Source: Escherichia coli (GTDB lineage Bacteria; Pseudomonadota; Gammaproteobacteria; Enterobacterales; Enterobacteriaceae). From it: 64,000 bases of DNA. A program made the position numbers and the translations under genes. The notes under the pieces were generated by a model. The model saw only the letters and a program-made list of their open reading frames with translations, searched no databases and was not told where the DNA came from. Below are positions 14,330 to 37,423 of the stretch, in pieces. The stretch lies in NCBI RefSeq assembly GCF_016903815.1, contig NZ_CP069974.1, one strand, 5' to 3'. The stretch's first letter is position 1. Every line of letters begins with the position of its first letter.

Positions 14330-14750
14330 GTATACCTCTTTATTTTCTTATCGCATCAAATTTATTTCACATATAAAAAAAAGACAATTCATCGATGAAT
14401 CGAATCGTGACGCAAGTTACGAAAATTACGATTCATGCAGCAAATCACATCACGAATTGAATCTAGAGTCAATTCGCTTTAACTCGTTGTTTTATTATTA
14501 CTGATTCATCTATGAGTTGTGTTAAATTCATTGGTGAATCATATGCGATTCACCAATGAATCCTTTTTATAATGTAAAATAAATTAAAATACATTATTTA
14601 AAACATAAGTTAATGATTCAAGTAGCAAATCAGCAAAAACTTGTTTTTGCGTAGTGTGTGGTGCTTTTGGTGGTGAGAACCACCAACCTGTTGAGCCTTT
14701 TTGTGGAGTGGGTTAAATTATTTACGGATAAAGTCACCAGAGGTGGAAAA
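14330..14750 (+). other. oriT: oriT (nic region, TraM/TraY/IHF binding region)
   Basis: GTAGTGTGT/GGTGCTTTTGGTGG at 14651-14673 is the R100/F-type nic sequence, with the predicted nick between 14659 and 14660 on the + strand. Inverted repeat TTGGTGGTGAGAACCACCAA at 14667-14686. TraM-type palindrome ATTCATTGGTGAATC-N6-GATTCACCAATGAAT at 14526-14561. Confidence 0.85.
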
Positions 14751-16804: not shown

Positions 16805-17392
16805 GTTTTCAGCCCCCATCATCTGTTGAGTTTCGGGAGCCGCGGTTTTGACGTTTTGCGGGGACCTGCCTTTTGTTCCCTCCGGTATTCACCATCACCT
16901 TTTTGAGAACCTTCGCCGCAAGGGGCATCACTGCCACGGACGGAAACGACTGTCCGGGGGCAGACCGCAAAAGTTTTTGCCTGCTTCTGGGCAAAAAGTT
17001 TTGCGGGATGTGCATTTCACCCCTGGACTGGCGGAGACGGTTGTGGCTGTCTTTGCCCCCGGCGACAGGGGCTTAAACAGGTGAATGGCACCGGACAGAA
17101 CAACGGGCAGGGACCCGCCGCAACGACGTGAAGCGCGGTTTGCGAAACGGCGTTGCCCCTTACATCCCGGCGGTCTTTTGCCGGGATGCCAGGAGCGCAG
17201 GCCACGGCGCGACAGAGGCGGCGCGACCGGAACGGTCGCTGCAAGCCAGGGGTTTTCACGCATCGGACCGTAGCGACAGCCCGAAACCGCGCCAGCGGGT
17301 TCGGCGGAGACTGGCAGGTGCGCCAGCAGCTGCCTGTCGGAGTCGGGCCTGACGACCGGATGCCGCCAGGCAGCCGGGAGCCGAAGGTGCGC
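16805..17392 (-). promoter_or_regulatory. GC-rich leading-region hairpin repeat, copy A1 (Frpo/ssi-like)
   Basis: About 590 nt, nearly identical to 28590-29177 and diverged from 34284-34848. Outer arms 16840-16870 / 17106-17138 enclose an inner 17-bp hairpin at 16965-17006. Overlapping ORFs on both strands are taken as non-coding. Confidence 0.6.
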
Positions 17393-19735
17393 GTGCGACA
17401 GGAAGTCGCTTAACGTATTGTTTTACATTGATAAAACCAGCTATCCCATTAGCTGTAGCCTACCGGGACAGGCGTTGCCGGCAACGGCGGGGTCTGAAGC
17501 TCCCGGGACAACGAGAGCCGGGCGTCAGCCCGGGTAATGCCCCGTGAGGGGCTTTACCTTGCTGCAAGCATCATGCGGCAGGAGAGCAAGGCTGGTCAGA
17601 AGGGTTAACACATGTGAACTGTTGATAAACACCGTTATCGGCAACAGGCCAAAGATGCTGACAGGCCTGAACCAAAAGGTACGGGGTCCGGTTGCTACCT
17701 CGCGCACAGGGAGCACATGGGCGCAGAGACCCCCGGTGAAGAGACAGAACCCGCCCTGACCCTCTGTATGTTAAGCGGAACCTGGTAAACCCGTATCGCT
17801 GCCTCACAGGCAGGTGAACCGCAAGGAACACTGTTAGCGGTGCGGGCATAGGAGGACGGAAAAAGCGAATGCCCGGCTGTAATAACCGGGATACGGGGCA
17901 GGTTCCCCGACGCGAAAGCGGGCAGACTTCCGTCTGGTCTTTAATTGCATGAAAAGCTGTAAAGCAGTCAAAAGGATATCAGCGAGATGAATACACACAT
18001 CAGTGTGTCCACGATACCCCACCCGACAGGCTGGCACACCATAAACTGGAAAGCATGCCATGCCCGGGTGCGAAAGCTACAGTTACGGATTGCAAAGGCA
18101 ACCCGACAGCAACAATGGCGGCAGGTCAGAGAACTACAGCGCATCCTCACCCGCTCATTCTCCGGCAAAGCCGTGGCTGTCAGGCGTGTAACTGAAAATA
18201 CCGGTAAAAGGACACCCGGTATTGACGGAAAAATATGGCACACACCGAAGGAGAAATGGGAAGGAATATGCAGCCTGAATCTGTGTGGTTACAGGCCACA
18301 GCCACTACGGCGAATACATATCCCAAAATCAAACGGCAAAACGCGACCGCTGGGCATACCCACAATGAGGGACCGGGCCATGCAGGCACTGTGGCTGCTG
18401 GCTCTGGAACCCGTATCCGAGACCACTGCTGACCATAACAGCTATGGTTTCAGACCAATGCGCAGCACGCATGACGCCATTGAGTCCATTTTTCTGCGGA
18501 TGAGCCAGAAAGTATCGCCCAAATGGATACTGGAGGGCGATATTAAAGGGTGCTTCGATAACATCAGCCATGACTGGCTGCTTTCCCATATTCCGATGGA
18601 CAGGAGACTGCTTAAAAAATGGTTGAAAGCAGGTTACATGGAAAGAGGCGTGTTTAACCATACGAACAGCGGGACACCGCAGGGAGGCATCATATCCCCT
18701 GTTCTCGCCAACATGGCTCTGGACGGACTGGAGAAGGAACTGATGCAAACGTTCAGGAAAAGTGGTTATCACAGTGCAAAGCACCAGGTGAATTATGTGA
18801 GATATGCTGATGATTTCATCTGTTCAGGCAGCTCCCGTGAATTGCTGGAAAATGAGGTCAGACCACTGATTGCAGCTTTCATGCGCGAACGAGGGCTGGA
18901 ACTGTCGGAAGAAAAAACAGCGATCACACATATAGATAAAGGCTTCGACTTTTTAGGGCAGAACGTCAGGAAGTACAACGGTAAAATGCTGATTAAACCG
19001 TCGAAGAAAAACCTGAAGAACTTCCTCTGTAAAGTCAGAGAAATAATTAAACGCAATCCGACGCTCCCGGCATGGAAACTGATAGGCCAGCTAAACCCGG
19101 TGATCCGGGGATGGGCTACCTATCACCGACACGTCGTGGCGAAAGAAACATTTAATTATGTCGACACCCAAATCTGGCGAGCTATATGGCGATGGTGTGT
19201 AAGACGGCATCCCCGGAAAGGATTGCGGTGGATCGCCGGACGATACTTCTCCTTTGAAGGCAGGCGCTGGATCTTTAAAGCCATAACCCCGGAAGGGAAA
19301 ATTCTGACACTCTTCCGGGCAATGGAAACACCGATAAAGCGCCATATAAAAATCAAAGGCGAAGCAACACCATACACCCCCGGAATGGAAATCTACTTTG
19401 AACGTCGTCTGGATCTAATCTGGAAAGGCAAATCAAAGAAGATGAAGACAGTAGTTCAACTCTGGAAGAGGCAGGGGAAACACTGTCCGCAGTGCGGACA
19501 ACTCATAACCAACCAGACCGGATGGAATATACATCACCGGATCAGGAAAGTTATGGGCGGCAGTGACGAACTGACCAATCTCGAGTTGTTACATCCGAAC
19601 TGCCACCGACAGTTACACAGCAGGGAAGCCGGTGCTCACCGAAAGCACTTATAAAGGCTTGAGCGGAGTGCGGGGAAACTCGCACGCTCCGTTCTTAGGG
19701 GGCGGCGGCGCAGCAATGTGCCGCTGCTACCCGAC
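17393..19735 (+). mobile_element. group II intron, type 1, copy 1
   Basis: 5' end GTGCGACAGGAAGTCGC (an alternative GTGCGC lies 6 nt upstream). Domain IV ORF encodes RT-maturase-HNH. Domain V GAGCGGAGTGCGGGGAAACTCGCACGCTCCGTTC at 19661-19694. Domain VI has a bulged A 7 nt from the 3' end ...CTACCCGAC. Confidence 0.85.
17987..19654 (+). CDS. group II intron-encoded protein (RT, maturase X, HNH endonuclease)
   Basis: 555 aa with RT motifs TPQGGIISPVLAN and YVRYADDF. C-terminal CPQCG...HHRIRKVMGGSDELTNLELLHPNCHRQLH is HNH-like. Confidence 0.9.
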   Translation: MNTHISVSTIPHPTGWHTINWKACHARVRKLQLRIAKATRQQQWRQVRELQRILTRSFSGKAVAVRRVTENTGKRTPGIDGKIWHTPKEKWEGICSLNLCGYRPQPLRRIHIPKSNGKTRPLGIPTMRDRAMQALWLLALEPVSETTADHNSYGFRPMRSTHDAIESIFLRMSQKVSPKWILEGDIKGCFDNISHDWLLSHIPMDRRLLKKWLKAGYMERGVFNHTNSGTPQGGIISPVLANMALDGLEKELMQTFRKSGYHSAKHQVNYVRYADDFICSGSSRELLENEVRPLIAAFMRERGLELSEEKTAITHIDKGFDFLGQNVRKYNGKMLIKPSKKNLKNFLCKVREIIKRNPTLPAWKLIGQLNPVIRGWATYHRHVVAKETFNYVDTQIWRAIWRWCVRRHPRKGLRWIAGRYFSFEGRRWIFKAITPEGKILTLFRAMETPIKRHIKIKGEATPYTPGMEIYFERRLDLIWKGKSKKMKTVVQLWKRQGKHCPQCGQLITNQTGWNIHHRIRKVMGGSDELTNLELLHPNCHRQLHSREAGAHRKHL

Positions 19736-20048
19736 CCGGCAGACAGGACAACACTGCAGTAGTCAGAATCAGAGCAGGAAGAAAAAGAGAATAATCACAG
19801 GGAAGGTGATGTGATTTCTGACAGGCCATAACCAGAGAAGGCGGGGGAAAAGAACGGGCGCCGCAGGCGCGCGTTCATCCCCGTTCCTGAAGGGAAACGA
19901 CCTTCCTGAAGTCAGGTTGTTCATGCCCGTACAACATCAGCAAGGAGAAAGGGGCTACCGGCGAACCAGCAGCCCCTTTATAAAGGCGCTTCAGTAGTCA
20001 GACCAGCATCAGTCCTGAAAAGGCGGGCCTGCGCCCGCCTCCAGGTTG

Positions 20049-20265: not shown

Positions 20266-20313
20266 AGGGATGCCTCGTGGTGGTTAATGTACTGACCCCA
20301 AAAAGTTGGACAG

Positions 20314-21165
20314 TTAAACACGAGGCATATAGGTCTGATTCCGATATTCAATTGGAGTCAGACCTTTTAATTTCAGGCTAATTCTTCTGCTGTTGTAGTA
20401 TTCAATATATTCCGTAACAGCATCCTTCAGTTCGCTTATATTACTGAACTCATCAAGATAAAAACACTCCGACTTTAAGGTTCCAAAGAAACACTCCACC
20501 ACAGCATTATCCAGACAATTGCCTTTTCTGGACATGCTTTGTTTAATACCATGTTCTTTAAGGATATTTTGATATCTTCTCATACGATACTGCCATCCCT
20601 GGTCAGAGTGCAGAACAGGATGCTCGTGAGGATTAAGCTTTTTGAATGCCTGATCGAGCATATTCTCAACCATGTTCATCACTGGTCTTTCCGAAAGGCT
20701 GTAAGAAATAACTTCGTTGTTGAAGAGATCTATTACTGGAGACAAATACAGCTTGCGCCCATTGACTGCAAATTCAGTAACATCGGTAACCCACTTCTCG
20801 TTTGGCCGCGTAGCCTTGAAATCTCTTTGGAGAACATTAGGGGCGGTTTGCCCTACCTCTCCTCTGTAAGAGCGGTATCGCTTGACCTTAATCGCTGCTT
20901 TAAGTGAGAGGGTTCCCATCAGGCGCTGAACAGCTTTATGGTTAATCTGTTTCCCTTCTCGATGAAGAGACAGCGTTACCCTACGGTATCCGTATCGGCC
21001 TCTATTCTCGTGATAAATCTCACTAATACGCTTTTTAACGTCCGCATACTTGTCAGGCTTGCTGAGAGCCTTTAGATGATAATAAAACGTACTGCGCGGT
21101 ATCTCCGCAGCCCTGAGAAGCTCATCAAGAGGATAAAACTGCCTTAGCTCGTTGAGTACTTTCAC
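20314..21165 (-). CDS. insB: IS150 OrfB (DDE integrase domain)
   Basis: 283 aa with an IS3-family integrase core ...HSDQGWQY...[12 protein letters not shown].... Confidence 0.9.
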
Positions 21166-21683
21166 TTTTTCGTGGGATGAGCTAAGGCTTTCAGCTTTTT
21201 TAGATACATAAGCCGCGTTTCAAGAAATCGAACTTGCCTTTCAAGATCCTCAATGCGTCGGTCTTTTGACAGCTCCAATGCTGATGCCGCTTTTTCTGGA
21301 TCAACTGATATTGCAATGTTTCTTTTGGTGCCAATCTTGAGCGCGCGTAAACCAGCTTCTCCGCGCTCTTCATAGACCTTCAGCCACCTGGCTACAGAAC
21401 CACTACCAGCAAGCATAAAGTGAGCAGCAGCCTGATTAAGGGACATGTGCTGCTCGATCACAGCTTTCACGACCTTAATACGCAACTCTGGATCAGCACT
21501 AACGCCTTTAGGTTTGGGAATTAAACCTTTTTCTCCATGTTTTTCATAGAGGGCAACCCATGTCCTGACCTGGGTTCGGGGGACACCAAAACGTGCCGAG
21601 ATGATCCTGTAACCATCATCAGTTGTGAAGTAGTGATTCACGACTTCAAGGCGCTTTTCAAAAGGGTATTTTGGCTTTGACAT
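21162..21683 (-). CDS. insA: IS150 OrfA (HTH)
   Basis: 173 aa MSKPKYPFEKRLEVVNHYFTTDDGYRIISARFGVPRTQVRTWV..., overlapping orfB as expected for -1 frameshifting. Confidence 0.9.
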   Translation of the reverse strand: MSKPKYPFEKRLEVVNHYFTTDDGYRIISARFGVPRTQVRTWVALYEKHGEKGLIPKPKGVSADPELRIKVVKAVIEQHMSLNQAAAHFMLAGSGSVARWLKVYEERGEAGLRALKIGTKRNIAISVDPEKAASALELSKDRRIEDLERQVRFLETRLMYLKKLKALAHPTKK

Positions 21684-21842
21684 ATTAGGGGCTATTCCAT
21701 TTCATCGTCCAACAAAATGGGTGCAGTACAAGCGCCGGGCACATCATAGCCCATATACCTGCACGCTGACCACACTCACTTTCCCTGAAAATAATCCGCT
21801 CATTCAGACCGTTCACGGGAAATCCGTGTGATTGTTGCCGCA

Positions 21843-25868: not shown

Positions 25869-28529
25869 GTAGGGTAGGGTACGTGTGGTCTTTCAAGATA
25901 AATGGCGAATATGTCCTGCTTATCTTGAGTTAGATCACCGTTACCCCCCCTCCGAACCGTACGTGCACCTTTCAATGCATACGGCTCTCCATTGCTAGCT
26001 TATTGGGGATAAACTCATTTAGCAGAATCCCCACTTGAGACAGGTGGTTGCAGGAGTATTCTTCCCTTTTCCTGTCTCAGATCGGGTAGTTTTCCGCTAT
26101 GTAACTTGTCGTGGCAACTTGCGCACAAAATCATCGTTTTCCGGCGGCGTGCGATCATCATTAGTTGCCACAGGCTGGGTTTATATCCGGCCTTACGACC
26201 TTTCTTCAGGTCTTTTAGCTTTCTGACATGATGTACTTCGCAGCGCCCAGTCTTCGCACAATACTCGCAGATCCTTGCCCCTAATCGACGCATGATCTCT
26301 GTTGTGCGGGTTGTGATATGTGCGGTTCTCGGTTCCGTATCGACAATCGTTGTTCGGTTGCGATTGACATGTTTGAGTTTGAAAACCTCAATCTTTCGGG
26401 ATCCATTTTTGGCCTGAACGGTAATAGCCAGATCTCCATTATTTTGCCGTAGCGATTTGGCGACTTTATTCACTGAACTACGTCGTTTATTCGCTAGGGT
26501 CTTAAAAAGGCTTATTTGCCATATGAAATATAATTTTGATAATTTATATTTCATGTCCAGCGCCAGACTGTAGTAGTTCGCCAATCCGCGCATTTCCGCG
26601 TTGAAAGTCAGAACAATTTCAGCTTCACTGAGATTTTGTAGACTTGAACGATGTACAGCCTTCACATTCTCATAACAGCCATATTTCTTTTGGTGACAAA
26701 ATTTAGCGGCTATATTGTCAGGAACGAAGAGCTGCACAATTCCTGTGGTGGATCTCCGGAGAGCGTGCCGCCCTTGCATTTTCTGCTTCAGCAATTTCTT
26801 TGCATCTGCCTGTCTGATTTCATAGCCTAAAAAATTAACTCCTTCTGAGATATGGCGGATCCTGGTCTTTGCTTCATTAACTTCCAATCCCAGTGAAGTA
26901 GTAATAAAGTTTCTGACCTGTCTTGATATATGTTCAGCATCTTTCTTCGAGCCGATGACACCAATTACGAAGTCATCAGCATATCGAACATAGTACATAC
27001 GCCTGAAGTTTGGATCGTTCATGACCTGAGATGGTATAGAACGTTTTTCTTCAAGCAGTCGTTCAATTTCTTTCTTTATGGCTTCTTTTTCTGATTCAGA
27101 ATCAGTTGCCATACCGTCTACTTTCTTTCGTAGTTTATGAATCTTATGGGCCAGCCTGTTCATATCTGGATTCGCTCTTCGTTTTGTACCGCTTGTATAT
27201 GCAGGAATTAAGTTCTGTTCTACAAAACGGTCCAGTTTGTCGAGGTATATATTTGCCAGTAAGGGAGAAATTATCCCACCTTGTGGCGTGCCAGAATATG
27301 AGCGATGGTATTTCCAATTGTCCACATATCCTGCCTTCAGCCACTGTTCGATTAATTTCAGGAAATTCTTATCCTTAATTTTCTCTGCCAGTGTATTCAG
27401 CAATAGTTTGTGGGGGATATTGTCAAAGAAACCTTTGATATCAACATCCACGATCCATTTAACTCCGTTCCAGACTGGACGAATAGATCTGAGCGCAGTT
27501 TCACACGAACGTTTTGGTCTGAATCCATGAGAGTGTTCAGAGAATACTGGTTCATAAACCCTTTCCAGAATAATTCTTGCTACTTCTTGCGCCAGTTTAT
27601 CGTCTCCACCTGGAATCCCCAGCGGTCTGGTTTTTCCGTCCTTTTTTGGGATCTGAACTCTGCGTACAGGTTTCGCTACGTATTCTCTACTCCGCAATGT
27701 TTTTGCCAGCTTCTCTGCTCTTTCGATAGAGAAGCCATCAATGGTATCTGTTGATACACCTTGAGTCAGTGCACCTGCATTGGCCCGTATATTCACGTAG
27801 GCTTGCAGCCACAGTCCGGGCTCACACGCAATTTTGTATAGATTACGTACTGGATACCCTTTTTTTGAAGCATCCTCAATTCCATCTAATCTTTTCTCAA
27901 GTTCATCAGGCAGCATTGGCTAACCCTCCTCTTAGAGATTGATGTATCTAACAACTGTCTCCCTTCCCCGCAGCACTGTGAGGCTTTCATCTCCCTTCCG
28001 GTTGATTTATACCTTTGCTGCTTCCGTATAATGCGGACTGCCGTAGCCCATTACAGGCCGACCTTGAGTACTATGGAGACTCCGCTACCATGCTGGGTAT
28101 AAATCCAGTTTAGGTAGTCCCGTAGTTTCACGGTGTGGAGATGCGATGTACTTAGGATGTCTTTCGATCGTTTAACTATTTCATCAATAGCTGGCCCGTT
28201 AGAGTGGTCACAATCAACGTAGGGCGGATTTCTTGTGCTATTACGGGAATAACGCTTCAATCGTTCTGCGTTATTGGTTTCCTGTTTCCCACATAGATCT
28301 CGACTTCAACAAACCCAGTTTATCCATATACATCTTGCATTGAGTGGTGATACTTATAACGATTTCCGTATTCACCACCCTTTTCTGTGGATGCTATGTT
28401 CACCTCTCCTTTTCAGGATCTCCGAGCCTGTTACCAAGCGAGGCTAACCACAGTATGCAATGGCTATACCACTAAGCCATGTTGCTTTTCATGCAACACT
28501 CCATAAAACACCGCGCTTCAACGGCGCAC
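25869..28529 (-). mobile_element. group II intron, type 2, inside ssb (sense orientation)
   Basis: Minus strand begins GTGCGCCGTTGAAGCGCGG at 28529. Domain V GAGCCGTATGCATTGAAAGGTGCACGTACGGTTC is the reverse complement of 25954-25987. Ends ...CCCTACCCTAC at 25869. 2661 nt with an internal RT ORF. Confidence 0.88.
26015..27916 (-). CDS. group II intron-encoded protein (RT, maturase, HNH-like C-terminus)
   Basis: 633 aa with GTPQGGIISPLLANIYL and YVRYADDFVIGV, and C-terminal CEYCAKTGRCEVHHVRKL...CASCHDKLHSG. Confidence 0.9.
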   Translation of the reverse strand: MLPDELEKRLDGIEDASKKGYPVRNLYKIACEPGLWLQAYVNIRANAGALTQGVSTDTIDGFSIERAEKLAKTLRSREYVAKPVRRVQIPKKDGKTRPLGIPGGDDKLAQEVARIILERVYEPVFSEHSHGFRPKRSCETALRSIRPVWNGVKWIVDVDIKGFFDNIPHKLLLNTLAEKIKDKNFLKLIEQWLKAGYVDNWKYHRSYSGTPQGGIISPLLANIYLDKLDRFVEQNLIPAYTSGTKRRANPDMNRLAHKIHKLRKKVDGMATDSESEKEAIKKEIERLLEEKRSIPSQVMNDPNFRRMYYVRYADDFVIGVIGSKKDAEHISRQVRNFITTSLGLEVNEAKTRIRHISEGVNFLGYEIRQADAKKLLKQKMQGRHALRRSTTGIVQLFVPDNIAAKFCHQKKYGCYENVKAVHRSSLQNLSEAEIVLTFNAEMRGLANYYSLALDMKYKLSKLYFIWQISLFKTLANKRRSSVNKVAKSLRQNNGDLAITVQAKNGSRKIEVFKLKHVNRNRTTIVDTEPRTAHITTRTTEIMRRLGARICEYCAKTGRCEVHHVRKLKDLKKGRKAGYKPSLWQLMMIARRRKTMILCASCHDKLHSGKLPDLRQEKGRILLQPPVSSGDSAK

Positions 28530-28589: not shown

Positions 28590-29177
28590 GTTTTCAGCCC
28601 CCATCATCTTTTGAGTTTCGGGAGCCGCGGTTTTGACGTTTTGCGGGGACCTGCCTTTTGTTCCCTCCGGTATTCACCATCACCTTTTTGAGAACCTTCG
28701 CCGCATGGGGCATCACTGCCACGGACGGAAACGACTGTCCGGGGGCAGACCGCAAAAGTTTTTGCCTGCTTCTGGGCAAAAAGTTTTGCGGGATGTGCAT
28801 TTCACCCCTGGACTGGCGGAGACGGTTGTGGCTGTCTTTGCCCCCGGCGACAGGGGCTTAAACAGGTGAATGGCACCGGACAGAACAACGGGCAGGGACC
28901 CGCCGCAACGACGTGAAGCGCGGTTTGCGAAACGGCGTTGCCCCTTACATCCCGGCGGTCTTTTGCCGGGATGCCAGGAGCGCAGGCCACGGCGCGACAG
29001 AGGCGGCGCGACCGGAACGGTCGCTGCAAGCCAGGGGTTTTCACGCATCGGACCGTAGCGACAGCCCGAAACCGCGCCAGCGGGTTCGGCGGAGACTGGC
29101 AGGTGCGCCAGCAGCTGCCTGTCGGAGTCGGGCCTGACGACCGGATGCCGCCAGGCAGCCGGGAGCCGAAGGTGCGC
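28590..29177 (-). promoter_or_regulatory. GC-rich leading-region hairpin repeat, copy A2 (Frpo/ssi-like), upstream of ssb
   Basis: Offset +11785 from A1, with only a couple of substitutions seen by eye. It starts 22 nt from the ssb ATG. Confidence 0.6.
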
Positions 29178-31520
29178 GTGCGACAGGAAGTCGCTTAACG
29201 TATTGTTTTACATTGATAAAACCAGCTATCCCATTAGCTGTAGCCTACCGGGACAGGCGTTGCCGGCAACGGCGGGGTCTGAAGCTCCCGGGACAACGAG
29301 AGCCGGGCGTCAGCCCGGGTAATGCCCCGTGAGGGGCTTTACCTTGCTGCAAGCATCATGCGGCAGGAGAGCAAGGCTGGTCAGAAGGGTTAACACATGT
29401 GAACTGTTGATAAACACCGTTATCGGCAACAGGCCAAAGATGCTGACAGGCCTGAACCAAAAGGTACGGGGTCCGGTTGCTACCTCGCGCACAGGGAGCA
29501 CATGGGCGCAGAGACCCCCGGTGAAGAGACAGAACCCGCCCTGACCCTCTGTATGTTAAGCGGAACCTGGTAAACCCGTATCGCTGCCTCACAGGCAGGT
29601 GAACCGCAAGGAACACTGTTAGCGGTGCGGGCATAGGAGGACGGAAAAAGCGAATGCCCGGCTGTAATAACCGGGATACGGGGCAGGTTCCCCGACGCGA
29701 AAGCGGGCAGACTTCCGTCTGGTCTTTAATTGCATGAAAAGCTGTAAAGCAGTCAAAAGGATATCAGCGAGATGAATACACACATCAGTGTGTCCACGAT
29801 ACCCCACCCGACAGGCTGGCACACCATAAACTGGAAAGCATGCCATGCCCGGGTGCGAAAGCTACAGTTACGGATTGCAAAGGCAACCCGACAGCAACAA
29901 TGGCGGCAGGTCAGAGAACTACAGCGCATCCTCACCCGCTCATTCTCCGGCAAAGCCGTGGCTGTCAGGCGTGTAACTGAAAATACCGGTAAAAGGACAC
30001 CCGGTATTGACGGAAAAATATGGCACACACCGAAGGAGAAATGGGAAGGAATATGCAGCCTGAATCTGTGTGGTTACAGGCCACAGCCACTACGGCGAAT
30101 ACATATCCCAAAATCAAACGGCAAAACGCGACCGCTGGGCATACCCACAATGAGGGACCGGGCCATGCAGGCACTGTGGCTGCTGGCTCTGGAACCCGTA
30201 TCCGAGACCACTGCTGACCATAACAGCTATGGTTTCAGACCAATGCGCAGCACGCATGACGCCATTGAGTCCATTTTTCTGCGGATGAGCCAGAAAGTAT
30301 CGCCCAAATGGATACTGGAGGGCGATATTAAAGGGTGCTTCGATAACATCAGCCATGACTGGCTGCTTTCCCATATTCCGATGGACAGGAGACTGCTTAA
30401 AAAATGGTTGAAAGCAGGTTACATGGAAAGAGGCGTGTTTAACCATACGAACAGCGGGACACCGCAGGGAGGCATCATATCCCCTGTTCTCGCCAACATG
30501 GCTCTGGACGGACTGGAGAAGGAACTGATGCAAACGTTCAGGAAAAGTGGTTATCACAGTGCAAAGCACCAGGTGAATTATGTGAGATATGCTGATGATT
30601 TCATCTGTTCAGGCAGCTCCCGTGAATTGCTGGAAAATGAGGTCAGACCACTGATTGCAGCTTTCATGCGCGAACGAGGGCTGGAACTGTCGGAAGAAAA
30701 AACAGCGATCACACATATAGATAAAGGCTTCGACTTTTTAGGGCAGAACGTCAGGAAGTACAACGGTAAAATGCTGATTAAACCGTCGAAGAAAAACCTG
30801 AAGAACTTCCTCTGTAAAGTCAGAGAAATAATTAAACGCAATCCGACGCTCCCGGCATGGAAACTGATAGGCCAGCTAAACCCGGTGATCCGGGGATGGG
30901 CTACCTATCACCGACACGTCGTGGCGAAAGAAACATTTAATTATGTCGACACCCAAATCTGGCGAGCTATATGGCGATGGTGTGTAAGACGGCATCCCCG
31001 GAAAGGATTGCGGTGGATCGCCGGACGATACTTCTCCTTTGAAGGCAGGCGCTGGATCTTTAAAGCCATAACCCCGGAAGGGAAAATTCTGACACTCTTC
31101 CGGGCAATGGAAACACCGATAAAGCGCCATATAAAAATCAAAGGCGAAGCAACACCATACACCCCCGGAATGGAAATCTACTTTGAACGTCGTCTGGATC
31201 TAATCTGGAAAGGCAAATCAAAGAAGATGAAGACAGTAGTTCAACTCTGGAAGAGGCAGGGGAAACACTGTCCGCAGTGCGGACAACTCATAACCAACCA
31301 GACCGGATGGAATATACATCACCGGATCAGGAAAGTTATGGGCGGCAGTGACGAACTGACCAATCTCGAGTTGTTACATCCGAACTGCCACCGACAGTTA
31401 CACAGCAGGGAAGCCGGTGCTCACCGAAAGCACTTATAAAGGCTTGAGCGGAGTGCGGGGAAACTCGCACGCTCCGTTCTTAGGGGGCGGCGGCGCAGCA
31501 ATGTGCCGCTGCTACCCGAC
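29178..31520 (+). mobile_element. group II intron, type 1, copy 2
   Basis: Same sequence and same insertion point as copy 1 (…GCCGAAGGTGCGC | intron | CCGGCAGACAGG…). Confidence 0.85.
29772..31439 (+). CDS. group II intron-encoded protein (RT-maturase-HNH), copy 2
   Basis: The 555-aa track translation is identical to copy 1. Confidence 0.9.
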   Translation: MNTHISVSTIPHPTGWHTINWKACHARVRKLQLRIAKATRQQQWRQVRELQRILTRSFSGKAVAVRRVTENTGKRTPGIDGKIWHTPKEKWEGICSLNLCGYRPQPLRRIHIPKSNGKTRPLGIPTMRDRAMQALWLLALEPVSETTADHNSYGFRPMRSTHDAIESIFLRMSQKVSPKWILEGDIKGCFDNISHDWLLSHIPMDRRLLKKWLKAGYMERGVFNHTNSGTPQGGIISPVLANMALDGLEKELMQTFRKSGYHSAKHQVNYVRYADDFICSGSSRELLENEVRPLIAAFMRERGLELSEEKTAITHIDKGFDFLGQNVRKYNGKMLIKPSKKNLKNFLCKVREIIKRNPTLPAWKLIGQLNPVIRGWATYHRHVVAKETFNYVDTQIWRAIWRWCVRRHPRKGLRWIAGRYFSFEGRRWIFKAITPEGKILTLFRAMETPIKRHIKIKGEATPYTPGMEIYFERRLDLIWKGKSKKMKTVVQLWKRQGKHCPQCGQLITNQTGWNIHHRIRKVMGGSDELTNLELLHPNCHRQLHSREAGAHRKHL

Positions 31521-31577
31521 CCGGCAGACAGGACAACACTGCAGTAGTCAGAATCAGAGCAGCAGGAAAAAGAAGAA

Positions 31578-33815: not shown

Positions 33816-34046
33816 TCAGTTAAAAGCGCGTTTCAGTTCGAGTGTGCGGAGCACCTGCCCGAAGGCCGTGTTTTTCATGGCGGGGATGTGTACACCACGC
33901 CCCCGGTGAAAACTCCGGGCAATGTGTCGCCCGAAGGCTTTCAGCACGGGGTCAATTTCCGGCGCGGGGATGTCTTCGCGTCTGAAACGGGGATGACGGC
34001 GGGGCTTTACAGCCGCTGCGGAAGGTGAAACAATACTTACTGTCAT
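33816..34046 (-). CDS. hypothetical basic 76-aa protein
   Basis: ORF with RBS AAGAGG 7 nt before the ATG. First gene downstream (minus sense) of repeat A3. Confidence 0.5.
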   Translation of the reverse strand: MTVSIVSPSAAAVKPRRHPRFRREDIPAPEIDPVLKAFGRHIARSFHRGRGVHIPAMKNTAFGQVLRTLELKRAFN

Positions 34047-34283
34047 AATTTAGCCTCTTATGACGTTAATTAATGAAACCGTAAAGACTGTTCGTGCAGT
34101 CTCTGCGGTGTGGATTAAGCAGGTCCCTGACCTGCTTTTTTCATATCTGCGTCTGACGTTCTCCGGTGTTTTCCTCCTTCTGTTCCTGCGTTCTCATTAC
34201 CTGCCAGCCGGATGACTGACAGAACACATAAATGCGTATTGCCGGAGCCTGAAATAAATCCTGATTTTTAAAGAACATCACCC

Positions 34284-34848
34284 GTTGAGTTTCGGGAGCC
34301 GCGGTTTTGACGTTTCGCGGGAACCTGCTGCTGTATACCCTGTGGTATGAACTTCACCCGTTTGAGAACCTTCGCCGCAAGGGGCATCACTGCCACGGCC
34401 TGACGCACCTGTCCTGGGCAGAACGCAAAATTTTTTACCGGGTTTTGGGTAAAAAATTTTGTGGGCTGTTCATTTACCCTGGACAGTCAGTGCGGCAGGT
34501 TGTGGCTGTATCAGCCCCAGGCGACAGGGACTCATACGGGTGTGTGGCACCGGCAGGCAATGAGCAGGGACCCGCCGCAACGACGGAGAGCGCGTGCGCG
34601 AAACGGCGTTGCCCCTTACATCCCGGCGGCCTTTTGCCGGGATGCCGGGAGCGCAGGCCACGGCGCGACAAGGGTGGCGCGACCGGAACGGTCGCTGCAA
34701 GCCCGGGGTTTTCACGCATCGGACCGTAGCGACAGCCCGAAACCGCGCCAGCGGGTTCGGCGGAGACTGGCGGGTGCGCCAGCAGCTGCCTGTCGGAGTC
34801 GGGCCTGACGACCGGATGCCGCCAGGCAGCCGGGAGCCGAAGGTGCGC
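34284..34848 (-). promoter_or_regulatory. GC-rich leading-region hairpin repeat, copy A3 (diverged)
   Basis: Alignable to A1/A2 along its whole length with many substitutions. The inner hairpin 34424-34463 keeps pairing through compensatory changes. The last approx. 75 nt before the intron are identical to A1. Confidence 0.55.
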
Positions 34849-37191
34849 GTGCGACAGGAAGTCGCTTAACGTATTGTTTTACATTGATAAAACCAGCTAT
34901 CCCATTAGCTGTAGCCTACCGGGACAGGCGTTGCCGGCAACGGCGGGGTCTGAAGCTCCCGGGACAACGAGAGCCGGGCGTCAGCCCGGGTAATGCCCCG
35001 TGAGGGGCTTTACCTTGCTGCAAGCATCATGCGGCAGGAGAGCAAGGCTGGTCAGAAGGGTTAACACATGTGAACTGTTGATAAACACCGTTATCGGCAA
35101 CAGGCCAAAGATGCTGACAGGCCTGAACCAAAAGGTACGGGGTCCGGTTGCTACCTCGCGCACAGGGAGCACATGGGCGCAGAGACCCCCGGTGAAGAGA
35201 CAGAACCCGCCCTGACCCTCTGTATGTTAAGCGGAACCTGGTAAACCCGTATCGCTGCCTCACAGGCAGGTGAACCGCAAGGAACACTGTTAGCGGTGCG
35301 GGCATAGGAGGACGGAAAAAGCGAATGCCCGGCTGTAATAACCGGGATACGGGGCAGGTTCCCCGACGCGAAAGCGGGCAGACTTCCGTCTGGTCTTTAA
35401 TTGCATGAAAAGCTGTAAAGCAGTCAAAAGGATATCAGCGAGATGAATACACACATCAGTGTGTCCACGATACCCCACCCGACAGGCTGGCACACCATAA
35501 ACTGGAAAGCATGCCATGCCCGGGTGCGAAAGCTACAGTTACGGATTGCAAAGGCAACCCGACAGCAACAATGGCGGCAGGTCAGAGAACTACAGCGCAT
35601 CCTCACCCGCTCATTCTCCGGCAAAGCCGTGGCTGTCAGGCGTGTAACTGAAAATACCGGTAAAAGGACACCCGGTATTGACGGAAAAATATGGCACACA
35701 CCGAAGGAGAAATGGGAAGGAATATGCAGCCTGAATCTGTGTGGTTACAGGCCACAGCCACTACGGCGAATACATATCCCAAAATCAAACGGCAAAACGC
35801 GACCGCTGGGCATACCCACAATGAGGGACCGGGCCATGCAGGCACTGTGGCTGCTGGCTCTGGAACCCGTATCCGAGACCACTGCTGACCATAACAGCTA
35901 TGGTTTCAGACCAATGCGCAGCACGCATGACGCCATTGAGTCCATTTTTCTGCGGATGAGCCAGAAAGTATCGCCCAAATGGATACTGGAGGGCGATATT
36001 AAAGGGTGCTTCGATAACATCAGCCATGACTGGCTGCTTTCCCATATTCCGATGGACAGGAGACTGCTTAAAAAATGGTTGAAAGCAGGTTACATGGAAA
36101 GAGGCGTGTTTAACCATACGAACAGCGGGACACCGCAGGAAGGCATCATATCCCCTGTTCTCGCCAACATGGCTCTGGACGGACTGGAGAAGGAACTGAT
36201 GCAAACGTTCAGGAAAAGTGGTTATCACAGTGCAAAGCACCAGGTGAATTATGTGAGATATGCTGATGATTTCATCTGTTCAGGCAGCTCCCGTGAATTG
36301 CTGGAAAATGAGGTCAGACCACTGATTGCAGCTTTCATGCGCGAACGAGGGCTGGAACTGTCGGAAGAAAAAACAGCGATCACACATATAGATAAAGGCT
36401 TCGACTTTTTAGGGCAGAACGTCAGGAAGTACAACGGTAAAATGCTGATTAAACCGTCGAAGAAAAACCTGAAGAACTTCCTCTGTAAAGTCAGAGAAAT
36501 AATTAAACGCAATCCGACGCTCCCGGCATGGAAACTGATAGGCCAGCTAAACCCGGTGATCCGGGGATGGGCTACCTATCACCGACACGTCGTGGCGAAA
36601 GAAACATTTAATTATGTCGACACCCAAATCTGGCGAGCTATATGGCGATGGTGTGTAAGACGGCATCCCCGGAAAGGATTGCGGTGGATCGCCGGACGAT
36701 ACTTCTCCTTTGAAGGCAGGCGCTGGATCTTTAAAGCCATAACCCCGGAAGGGAAAATTCTGACACTCTTCCGGGCAATGGAAACACCGATAAAGCGCCA
36801 TATAAAAATCAAAGGCGAAGCAACACCATACACCCCCGGAATGGAAATCTACTTTGAACGTCGTCTGGATCTAATCTGGAAAGGCAAATCAAAGAAGATG
36901 AAGACAGTAGTTCAACTCTGGAAGAGGCAGGGGAAACACTGTCCGCAGTGCGGACAACTCATAACCAACCAGACCGGATGGAATATACATCACCGGATCA
37001 GGAAAGTTATGGGCGGCAGTGACGAACTGACCAATCTCGAGTTGTTACATCCGAACTGCCACCGACAGTTACACAGCAGGGAAGCCGGTGCTCACCGAAA
37101 GCACTTATAAAGGCTTGAGCGGAGTGCGGGGAAACTCGCACGCTCCGTTCTTAGGGGGCGGCGGCGCAGCAATGTGCCGCTGCTACCCGAC
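34849..37191 (+). mobile_element. group II intron, type 1, copy 3
   Basis: Same ends and same insertion point as copies 1 and 2. Confidence 0.85.
35443..37110 (+). CDS. group II intron-encoded protein, copy 3 (G-to-E change in an RT motif)
   Basis: 555 aa, identical to copies 1 and 2 except TPQGGIISP becomes TPQEGIISP (GGA to GAA near 36139). Confidence 0.85.
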   Translation: MNTHISVSTIPHPTGWHTINWKACHARVRKLQLRIAKATRQQQWRQVRELQRILTRSFSGKAVAVRRVTENTGKRTPGIDGKIWHTPKEKWEGICSLNLCGYRPQPLRRIHIPKSNGKTRPLGIPTMRDRAMQALWLLALEPVSETTADHNSYGFRPMRSTHDAIESIFLRMSQKVSPKWILEGDIKGCFDNISHDWLLSHIPMDRRLLKKWLKAGYMERGVFNHTNSGTPQEGIISPVLANMALDGLEKELMQTFRKSGYHSAKHQVNYVRYADDFICSGSSRELLENEVRPLIAAFMRERGLELSEEKTAITHIDKGFDFLGQNVRKYNGKMLIKPSKKNLKNFLCKVREIIKRNPTLPAWKLIGQLNPVIRGWATYHRHVVAKETFNYVDTQIWRAIWRWCVRRHPRKGLRWIAGRYFSFEGRRWIFKAITPEGKILTLFRAMETPIKRHIKIKGEATPYTPGMEIYFERRLDLIWKGKSKKMKTVVQLWKRQGKHCPQCGQLITNQTGWNIHHRIRKVMGGSDELTNLELLHPNCHRQLHSREAGAHRKHL

Positions 37192-37423
37192 CCGGCAGAC
37201 AGAACAACACTGCAGTAGTCAGAATCAGAGCAGCAGATAAAGGAACAACAACATCAGGAACAGTTCCATAACATAAGAAAGAAACACTCCTGAGTCAGAC
37301 ACATCACAGACGGGAAGGGTAACGGGCGACGCGCCAGCGTGGCCCGCTTCCCTTCCGGCAGGCGTCAGCCTGCCAGGGGTTTTCGCGCGGACTGACAGGC
37401 GGCCTCCACCGCCTGCCCCTGTA

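Follow-up and report, generated by a model that had tools for sequence, protein, structure and literature searches.

A IIB1/CL1 group II intron at three leading-region repeats beside single-stranded DNA promoters in an Escherichia coli plasmid

We examined a group II intron that occurs three times in a 64,000-nucleotide (nt) stretch of Escherichia coli DNA (contig NZ_CP069974.1, assembly GCF_016903815.1; hereafter the window) that holds a plasmid transfer origin (oriT) and the adjoining leading region. The intron is already known, and its arrangement in the window is that of a common element at its normal homing site. We consider it likely that this IIB1/CL1 intron filled all three of its natural homing sites in the plasmid by ordinary retrohoming, and that the natural homing site is the 15-nt sequence A GCCGA AG GTGCGC/C (the slash marks the insertion point), located in a conserved segment beside class-1 single-stranded DNA (ssDNA) promoters of the Frpo/ssi type. 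The idea that homing is instead coupled to conjugation is plausible but unlikely, and no result specifically favours it.

Intron copies, junctions and exon recognition

The intron copies and the features used in their description are as follows; IEP stands for intron-encoded protein, ORF for open reading frame, RT for reverse transcriptase, EBS and IBS for exon- and intron-binding site, and T-strand for transferred strand.

17393..19735, + strand: group II intron copy 1, 2,343 nt, class IIB1/CL1, endonuclease-positive (En+), in repeat A1 (Frpo1 homologue)
29178..31520, + strand: group II intron copy 2, the same as copy 1, in repeat A2 (Frpo2 homologue, upstream of ssb)
34849..37191, + strand: group II intron copy 3, with G1292A and IEP G233E, in repeat A3
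17987..19654, + strand: IEP ORF of copy 1, 555 amino acids (aa), with RVT_N, RT (YADD at residue 273), maturase and HNH
29772-31439 and 35443-37110, + strand: the same ORF in copies 2 and 3
17636..17741, + strand: exon-binding sites of copy 1, complementary to exon positions -14, -13 to -9, -6 to -1 and +1
17379..17392, + strand (equivalents 29164-29177 and 34835-34848): homing-site core on the T-strand, IBS2a, IBS2 and IBS1

A reading of the window made from sequence alone (the sequence-only reading) had described three identical 2343-nt introns. The coordinates, length and flanks stand, but the identity does not: copies 1 and 2 show no difference over 2,343 nt, whereas copy 3 carries a single substitution, G to A at intron position 1292, which changes Gly233 of the IEP to Glu. 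This residue falls in the RT domain of the copy 3 protein (35443-37110), and copies 1 and 2 lack the change. In NZ_LR890537, an otherwise matching plasmid, all three IEPs are annotated as the same protein, so G233E is a private mutation of copy 3 and possibly an inactivating one.

The 5' flank ending in GCCGGGAGCCGAAGGTGCGC is common to all three introns, with the upstream 60 nt identical in all, and the 3' flank reads CCGGCAGACAG(G/A)ACAACACTGCAG, the first difference being at +12 (G in A1 and A2, A in A3). An intron-free plasmid colinear with the window is pAPEC-O2-R (NC_006671). Relative to it, the window carries three exact 2,343-bp insertions, and this comparison with an intron-less homologue establishes all three exon junctions exactly. 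The intron boundaries are GUGCGAC...CCCGAC in 3/3 copies, in agreement with the 5' GUGYG and 3' AY consensus. With a joined-exon query of 147 nt, at least 2,640 of the 5,000 best-scoring plasmid records proved to have the site uninterrupted, several of them at 100% identity.

Each copy gives full-length matches to the Rfam models group-II-D1D4-7 (RF02012; 121.8 bits, gathering threshold 34) and domain V/VI (RF00029; 60.1 bits, gathering threshold 40), so that the domains I-IV core, the catalytic domain V and domain VI with its branch-point A are all present. The IEP contains the Pfam domains RVT_N, RVT_1, GIIM and HNH, is 56% identical to the IEP of EcI5, and has as its best solved relative the Thermosynechococcus IIB RT (6ME0; full-length match, E = 1e-177). 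By these sequence matches we classify the element as a canonical endonuclease-positive IIB1/CL1 mobile group II intron related to EcI5; the RT-maturase-HNH ORF and domains V and VI proposed earlier are thereby confirmed in the copies. We found no name for the 2,343-nt intron in the Zimmerly database. Kl.pn.I5 was rejected as a name, since the intron of pK245 is a different element with a 495-aa IEP beside umuD.

The exon-binding sites were predicted from complementarity to the flanks. EBS1 corresponds to intron positions 310-315, GCGCAC (17702-17707), and forms 6 bp with IBS1, GTGCGC (-6 to -1), while EBS2, at intron positions 246-250, UCGGC (17638-17642), forms 5 bp with IBS2, GCCGA (-13 to -9). 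EBS2a is U244 (17636), paired with IBS2a, A(-14), and EBS3 is G349 (17741), paired with IBS3, C(+1) at 19736, giving a predicted total of 6 + 5 + 1 + 1 Watson-Crick pairs. The pairing of EBS1, EBS2 and EBS3 with the flanks, which the sequence-only reading had named as a check, is therefore found throughout, and EBS2a pairs too. Two other segments with 8-nt complementarity to the 5' exon, intron 107-114 and 480-487, were rejected as exon-binding sites, as they are domain I helices.

Experiments on EcI5 define the same EBS layout, including an EBS2a-IBS2a pair two nt upstream of EBS2 (PMC8643678). We aligned domain I of this intron with those of EcI5 and of two relatives, from Citrobacter (L005) and E. 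albertii (L007), and found that the EBS loops are homologous while their sequences differ and fit their own exons. In EcI5, ACCAG pairs with CTGGT and the U with A(-14); in the Citrobacter intron, the partners are CAUGA with TTATG and UCGUAG with TTACGA. At EBS3 the aligned introns have G, G, U and U where exon +1 has C, C, A and A, so that EBS3 covaries in 4/4. Covariation at EBS1 and EBS2 is seen in EcI5 and the Citrobacter intron and is less clear in the E. albertii intron, where EBS3 fits and the intron's own exon fits poorly at EBS1 and partially at EBS2. With a 5' exon mismatched to its EBS1, the E. albertii intron carries little information on EBS1 covariation and was set aside as a witness for it. 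None of the outcomes that would have spoken against the sequence-only description of the element, namely other junctions, missing EBS-IBS complementarity or failure to fold as a group II intron, was found.

The repeat and the transferred strand

The repeat that carries the target, and the signals that orient it, are located as follows.

16805..17392, continuing at 19736-19791, + strand: repeat A1, positions 1-451 homologous to Frpo1 of F (97%)
28590..29177, continuing at 31521-31577, + strand: repeat A2, 99.7% identical to A1
34276..34848, continuing at 37192-37250, + strand: repeat A3, ~87.5% identical to A1/A2 overall, near-identical from -250 to +42
16822..17150, + strand: Frpo/ssi-type T-strand hairpin of A1, ~330 nt, DNA fold z = -9.6 against shuffles
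~28615-28933 (A2) and ~34300-34594 (A3), + strand: counterparts of the A1 hairpin
17329..17374, + strand: small imperfect stem-loop, positions -64 to -19, ending 18 nt upstream of the insertion point
~14646-14670, + strand: oriT nic region of R100 type, TTTGCGTAGTGTGT/GGTGCTTTTGG, which defines + as the transferred strand

Flank comparison shows that the repeat spans ~645 nt, of which, in order of coordinates, ~588 nt precede the insertion point and ~57 nt follow it. The window holds exactly three copies, and 3/3 are occupied by the intron at the same point. Over repeat positions 1-451, identity to the two Frpo regions of F is 97% and 89%. In F these regions sit upstream of ygeA/ygeB and of ssb (PMC9849209), and the repeats in the window are likewise located upstream of ygeA-type and ssb operons. 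From this identity and these positions, A1 and A2 are assigned as homologues of Frpo1 and Frpo2, and A3 as a third class-1 ssDNA promoter. Measured from the large hairpin, the insertion point is ~242 nt further 3', in line with the sequence-only placement of the target inside a repeated element but about 250 nt outside its hairpin. Classic F has the hairpins, but its target sequence has diverged and is without the IBS motifs, and the adjoining segment is missing.

The ~290 nt around the site (17143-17392 plus 19736-19777, and the A2 and A3 equivalents) are near-identical between A3 and A1/A2, whereas the hairpin has diverged to about 80%. This segment, from -250 to +42, is GC-rich, contains several small hairpins and is absent from classic F. 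ORFs of 76-77 aa annotated as hypothetical, which run across the target on either strand, were taken as non-coding: they are rich in Ala, Arg, Gly and Pro, and the GC-rich sequence leaves several frames open.

The genes traM, traJ, traY and traA lie to the left of the nic sequence and run leftward on the minus strand. In F-type transfer the T-strand enters 5' to 3' into the leading region. Given this polarity, a nic sequence on the + strand with the tra genes on its left makes + the T-strand, which is the template of the leading genes and antisense to them. The sequence-only reading was thus right on this point, and the position of the nic sequence is what establishes it. Comparison with pAPEC-O2-R also reveals an IS150 insertion (~20290-21728) between hok and psiA/psiB in the leading region.

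Origin of the copies and the case for conjugation-coupled homing

Since the plasmid has three promoter-plus-segment repeats, it offers three homing sites, each ~240 nt 3' (on the T-strand) of a promoter hairpin, the place of the site in the leading regions of F-like and I-like plasmids. The intron ribonucleoprotein (RNP) would recognise the site chiefly by RNA-DNA pairing through EBS2a, EBS2, EBS1 and EBS3. The intron RNA would then reverse-splice into the IBS-bearing strand, and HNH, judging from the intron family, would nick the opposite strand to prime complementary DNA (cDNA) synthesis. From one occupied site, most probably of the A3 type, the intron would have spread to the other two, either within a cell or between co-resident plasmids; we infer these biochemical steps as well as the order in which the sites were filled. 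What the analysis shows directly is the anatomy, the exact junctions, the site specificity, the pairings and the distribution of the intron. The T-strand orientation would then arise because the IBS sequence happens to lie on that strand. Insertion should break neither a gene nor a promoter hairpin, since the site falls between a leading operon's end and the ssDNA promoter that follows, and the intron runs antisense to the leading genes. The intron could thus persist and travel with very successful conjugative plasmids. In this respect the location is neutral, lying in GC-rich DNA that has no convincing ORF, beyond the hairpin and upstream of the Frpo transcription unit.

The flanks bear on whether the copies are three insertions. 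Copy 3 keeps every A3 marker, up to -77 on one side and +12 on the other, as in the empty A3 site of pAPEC-O2-R, and copies 1 and 2 retain theirs from +43 on. In principle the copies could instead be the product of homologous recombination or gene conversion among the repeats, or of an assembly artefact, and conversion between A1 and A2 would be feasible, given flanks that are 99.7% identical over 588 nt on one side. However, copy 3 has only 11 nt of 3' identity before the A3-specific marker at +12, too few for recombination of a 2.3-kb insert, so at least this copy is a true insertion. The multi-copy arrangement also recurs in independent complete assemblies (NZ_LR890537, CP056471 and NZ_CP020519). 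We therefore regard recombination or artefact as very improbable, and retrohoming of all three copies as the simplest account of the flanks.

The exact intron was found in 1,067 PLSDB records at 1,220 places, mostly in conjugative plasmids of Escherichia and Klebsiella, and in 343/5,426 complete E. coli genomes at 560 plasmid and 49 chromosomal places. The same 5' junction occurs in 1,017 of the ~1,022 plasmid records with a full-length copy. Three copies occur together with the intron in ssb, described below, in several independent complete plasmids, so that the triple-occupied arrangement is real and not unique. Queries across the 3' junctions (19735/19736, 31520/31521 and 37191/37192) matched PLSDB records of the A3 type in 780 cases, of the A2 type in 109 and of the A1 type in 67; the A3-type site, distal to oriT, is the usual one, and occupancy of all three is uncommon. 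A scan of genome contigs returned only three, from Streptomyces, Ferruginibacter and Erysipelotrichaceae assemblies, all with the same enterobacterial flank, and these are probably contaminants. One chromosomal copy lies at the cognate site, in the leading region of an integrated plasmid.

Three independent ectopic insertions into chromosomal genes, yejF, gntU and ypfJ, show what the intron requires of a target. All have AGCCGA and a near-cognate IBS1 at the correct spacing, with the shared pattern AGCCGA..(G)GTG.CG; exon +1 is C in gntU and ypfJ and T in yejF, and pairing at yejF requires a one-base bulge. The upstream DNA folds at -0.7 to -4.0 kcal/mol at these sites, against -10.6 at the cognate site, and forms no comparable stem-loop. 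The small stem-loop at -64 to -19 is therefore dispensable for insertion. By the MG1655 replichore map, and presuming no inversions, the insertions in yejF and gntU are on the leading-strand template and that in ypfJ on the lagging-strand template, a weak tally at three sites. Neither a lagging-template bias nor a stem-loop requirement was seen among them (n = 3).

The sequence-only reading had taken the arrangement as a pointer to conjugation-coupled retrohoming into a repeated, structurally constrained target. In such a process the RNP would reverse-splice into the single-stranded T-strand, either in the recipient, before the leading region is converted, or in the donor as the strands unwind, and synthesis of the complementary strand, not HNH, would prime the cDNA. 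The site might then have been selected because the T-strand there lies exposed as ssDNA for minutes after transfer, with RNPs already in the cell preferentially invading the incoming or outgoing plasmid, and the intron would be a conjugation-gated retroelement. Several observations are compatible with this. The intron sense strand is the T-strand. The leading region of F stays single-stranded for 60-180 s after entry, with the ssDNA-promoter hairpin blocking complementary synthesis, and that synthesis runs in the direction needed for cDNA priming (bioRxiv 10.64898/2026.01.09.698686). De novo homing has been recorded in a conjugating population (PMC10104558), and for the IBS region the folded T-strand is predicted to give moderately better access than the complementary strand (unpaired probability 0.49 versus 0.30).

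However, the accessibility of the target on the T-strand is unremarkable, at the 84th percentile, and the orientations of the three copies amount to a single 50:50 event, as the intron homes into direct repeats with site and strand specificity. The intron retains both the HNH domain and EBS2a-IBS2a, a pairing argued to open duplex DNA and to be dispensable in introns that target ssDNA (Monachello et al., PMC8643678). The ectopic insertions occur on both templates and share only the IBS motifs, with no hairpin context, and EcI5, the Citrobacter relative and the ssb intron of the window all lie on the non-transferred strand. The most occupied site, the oriT-distal A3 type, has the shortest ssDNA window in F, although these counts are clonally confounded, and a naive recipient would contain no RNP when the T-strand enters. 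The arrangement thus gives no support to the sequence-only proposal, either as to conjugation coupling, given that orientation is one 50:50 outcome and the duplex toolkit is kept, or as to a structurally constrained target, which lies outside the hairpin. We judge conjugation-coupled homing unlikely. If conjugation did gate homing, the spread of a retroelement would be mechanistically linked to plasmid transfer, and the strand coincidence gives rise to a cheap testable hypothesis now that the ssDNA window of the leading region has been measured.

A benefit to the plasmid was also considered, in which the intron beside the ssDNA promoters would be domesticated, for example as structured ssDNA that delays conversion to duplex or as a supply of RT. 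The high prevalence of the intron in successful plasmid lineages and the ability of hairpins to block conversion fit this idea. Most target-bearing plasmids, however, are without the intron, plasmids conjugate with or without it (PMC8765060), and the copies are near-identical, as expected from recent selfish spread; domestication is the least credible of the explanations weighed here and, in our view, highly improbable.

Ordinary retrohoming into three natural sites, the reading we prefer, has several points to answer. No sigma-70 duplex promoter for sense transcription was found upstream of copy 1. The segment from -250 to +42 may be functional, since it is conserved far better than the hairpin between A3 and A1/A2, and insertion could therefore disturb it. 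The occupancy counts for the A3-, A2- and A1-type sites are confounded by clonal plasmid lineages. Finally, reverse splicing into the ssDNA T-strand is compatible with everything found here as a contributing route alongside ordinary retrohoming. These points all weigh against the preferred account as we have stated it.

The only recognised + strand transcript near any intron copy is a match to the Rfam family AS-pc01 ("antisense to pHK01_035", 98.9 bits) at 34041-34140 (+), 135 nt upstream of A3 and in the T-strand sense, with a promoter-like site at 34006-34034 and a strong terminator at 34117-34137. Because it has its own strong terminator, AS-pc01 was rejected as a driver of the intron.

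The ssb intron and relation to known introns

The window contains a further group II intron.

25869..28529, - strand: separate group II intron, class IIA/ML, LtrA-like IEP at 26015-27916, in frame inside plasmid ssb

This intron, of 2,661 nt, is unrelated to the 2,343-nt intron and appears as a 2,661-bp insertion relative to pAPEC-O2-R. Its IEP has 633 aa and is LtrA-like (5G2X, E = 5.5e-119). It follows codon 13 of ssb (VILVG/RLGKDPEV), in the sense of that gene and thus on the non-transferred strand, just downstream of the A2 (Frpo2-like) ssDNA promoter, and is present in 513 PLSDB records. The ssb intron should share the transcript of the ssb operon, which is zygotically induced, and this makes it a candidate for expression triggered by conjugative entry. 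Each new host entered may see a burst of its expression, and of the two introns it may be the better candidate for a conjugation-linked life style.

A 2,343-bp group II intron has been described in pHN7A8 and other IncF33 (FII-33) plasmids, where it is a sublineage marker (PMC8765060, PMC6052338, PMC10654068). In an evolution experiment, an incoming IncI extended-spectrum beta-lactamase plasmid gained a new junction of such an intron at this locus of its leading region, in a host that was already intron-positive (PMC10104558). The published IncF33/IncI intron and the present one share their length and the same kind of leading-region site, and they are very probably the same element, the match to pHN7A8 being by description (length and kind of site). 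The papers place its site in a 77-aa hypothetical ORF or downstream of ycjA; nowhere in the literature we found is the site of the 2,343-bp intron related to the Frpo/ssi repeat, to the transferred strand or to occupancy of all repeats. For a widespread selfish retroelement on clinically important IncF and IncI resistance plasmids, already in use as a lineage marker, the present analysis adds a precise definition of the homing site, A-GCCGA-NN-GTGCGC/C, and of the exon-binding sites, and ties the target to a conserved segment beside class-1 ssDNA promoters. Because the target lies in this promoter-linked segment, plasmids offer two or three sites and classic F none.

The closest well-studied relative is EcI5 (E.c.I5, pO157; IIB1/CL1, En+), which has the same IEP domain order, has EBS2a, EBS2, EBS1 and EBS3 at homologous positions, and also resides in a plasmid leading-type region. 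It differs in sequence (~67% nucleotide identity over 58% of the length), in its own target, CTGGT..TCGAAT/C, and in lying on the non-transferred strand, in the sense of the leading genes. The leading regions of F-like and I-like plasmids resemble a hot spot for CL1/IIB1 introns, with different sites and both orientations; its members include EcI5 of pO157 and the Citrobacter and E. albertii introns (L005 9001-11359, L006 7926-10329 and L007 7947-10349). The Citrobacter intron, on an IncFIB plasmid, adjoins a hok-type locus, and the E. albertii intron is on an IncI-gamma/K1 plasmid. Among these four related leading-region introns, two have T-strand sense (the present one and that of E. albertii) and two the opposite (EcI5 and that of Citrobacter).

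Ll.LtrB, in the relaxase gene of pRS01/pAH90, is a known case of conjugation-linked intron spread (PMC4256276, PMC6003770). Like it, the 2,343-nt intron is a mobile group II intron on a conjugative element and spread by conjugation. Ll.LtrB, however, is of the IIA/ML type, interrupts a transfer gene in the sense orientation and has to splice, whereas the present intron is a IIB1 element in an intergenic position, antisense to the neighbouring genes; the ssb intron of the window is the closer analogue of Ll.LtrB. Precedents for the proposed ssDNA or structured targeting are RmInt1 and other En-minus introns, which use ssDNA at the replication fork, and IIC introns, which use stem-loops. The ssDNA-targeting introns are marked by the absence of an endonuclease and of EBS2a-IBS2a, and in IIC introns of EBS2. 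Unlike RmInt1-type and IIC introns, the present intron has HNH, EBS2 and EBS2a, with no lagging-template bias at its ectopic sites and no need of the upstream stem-loop, and so stands apart from that class.

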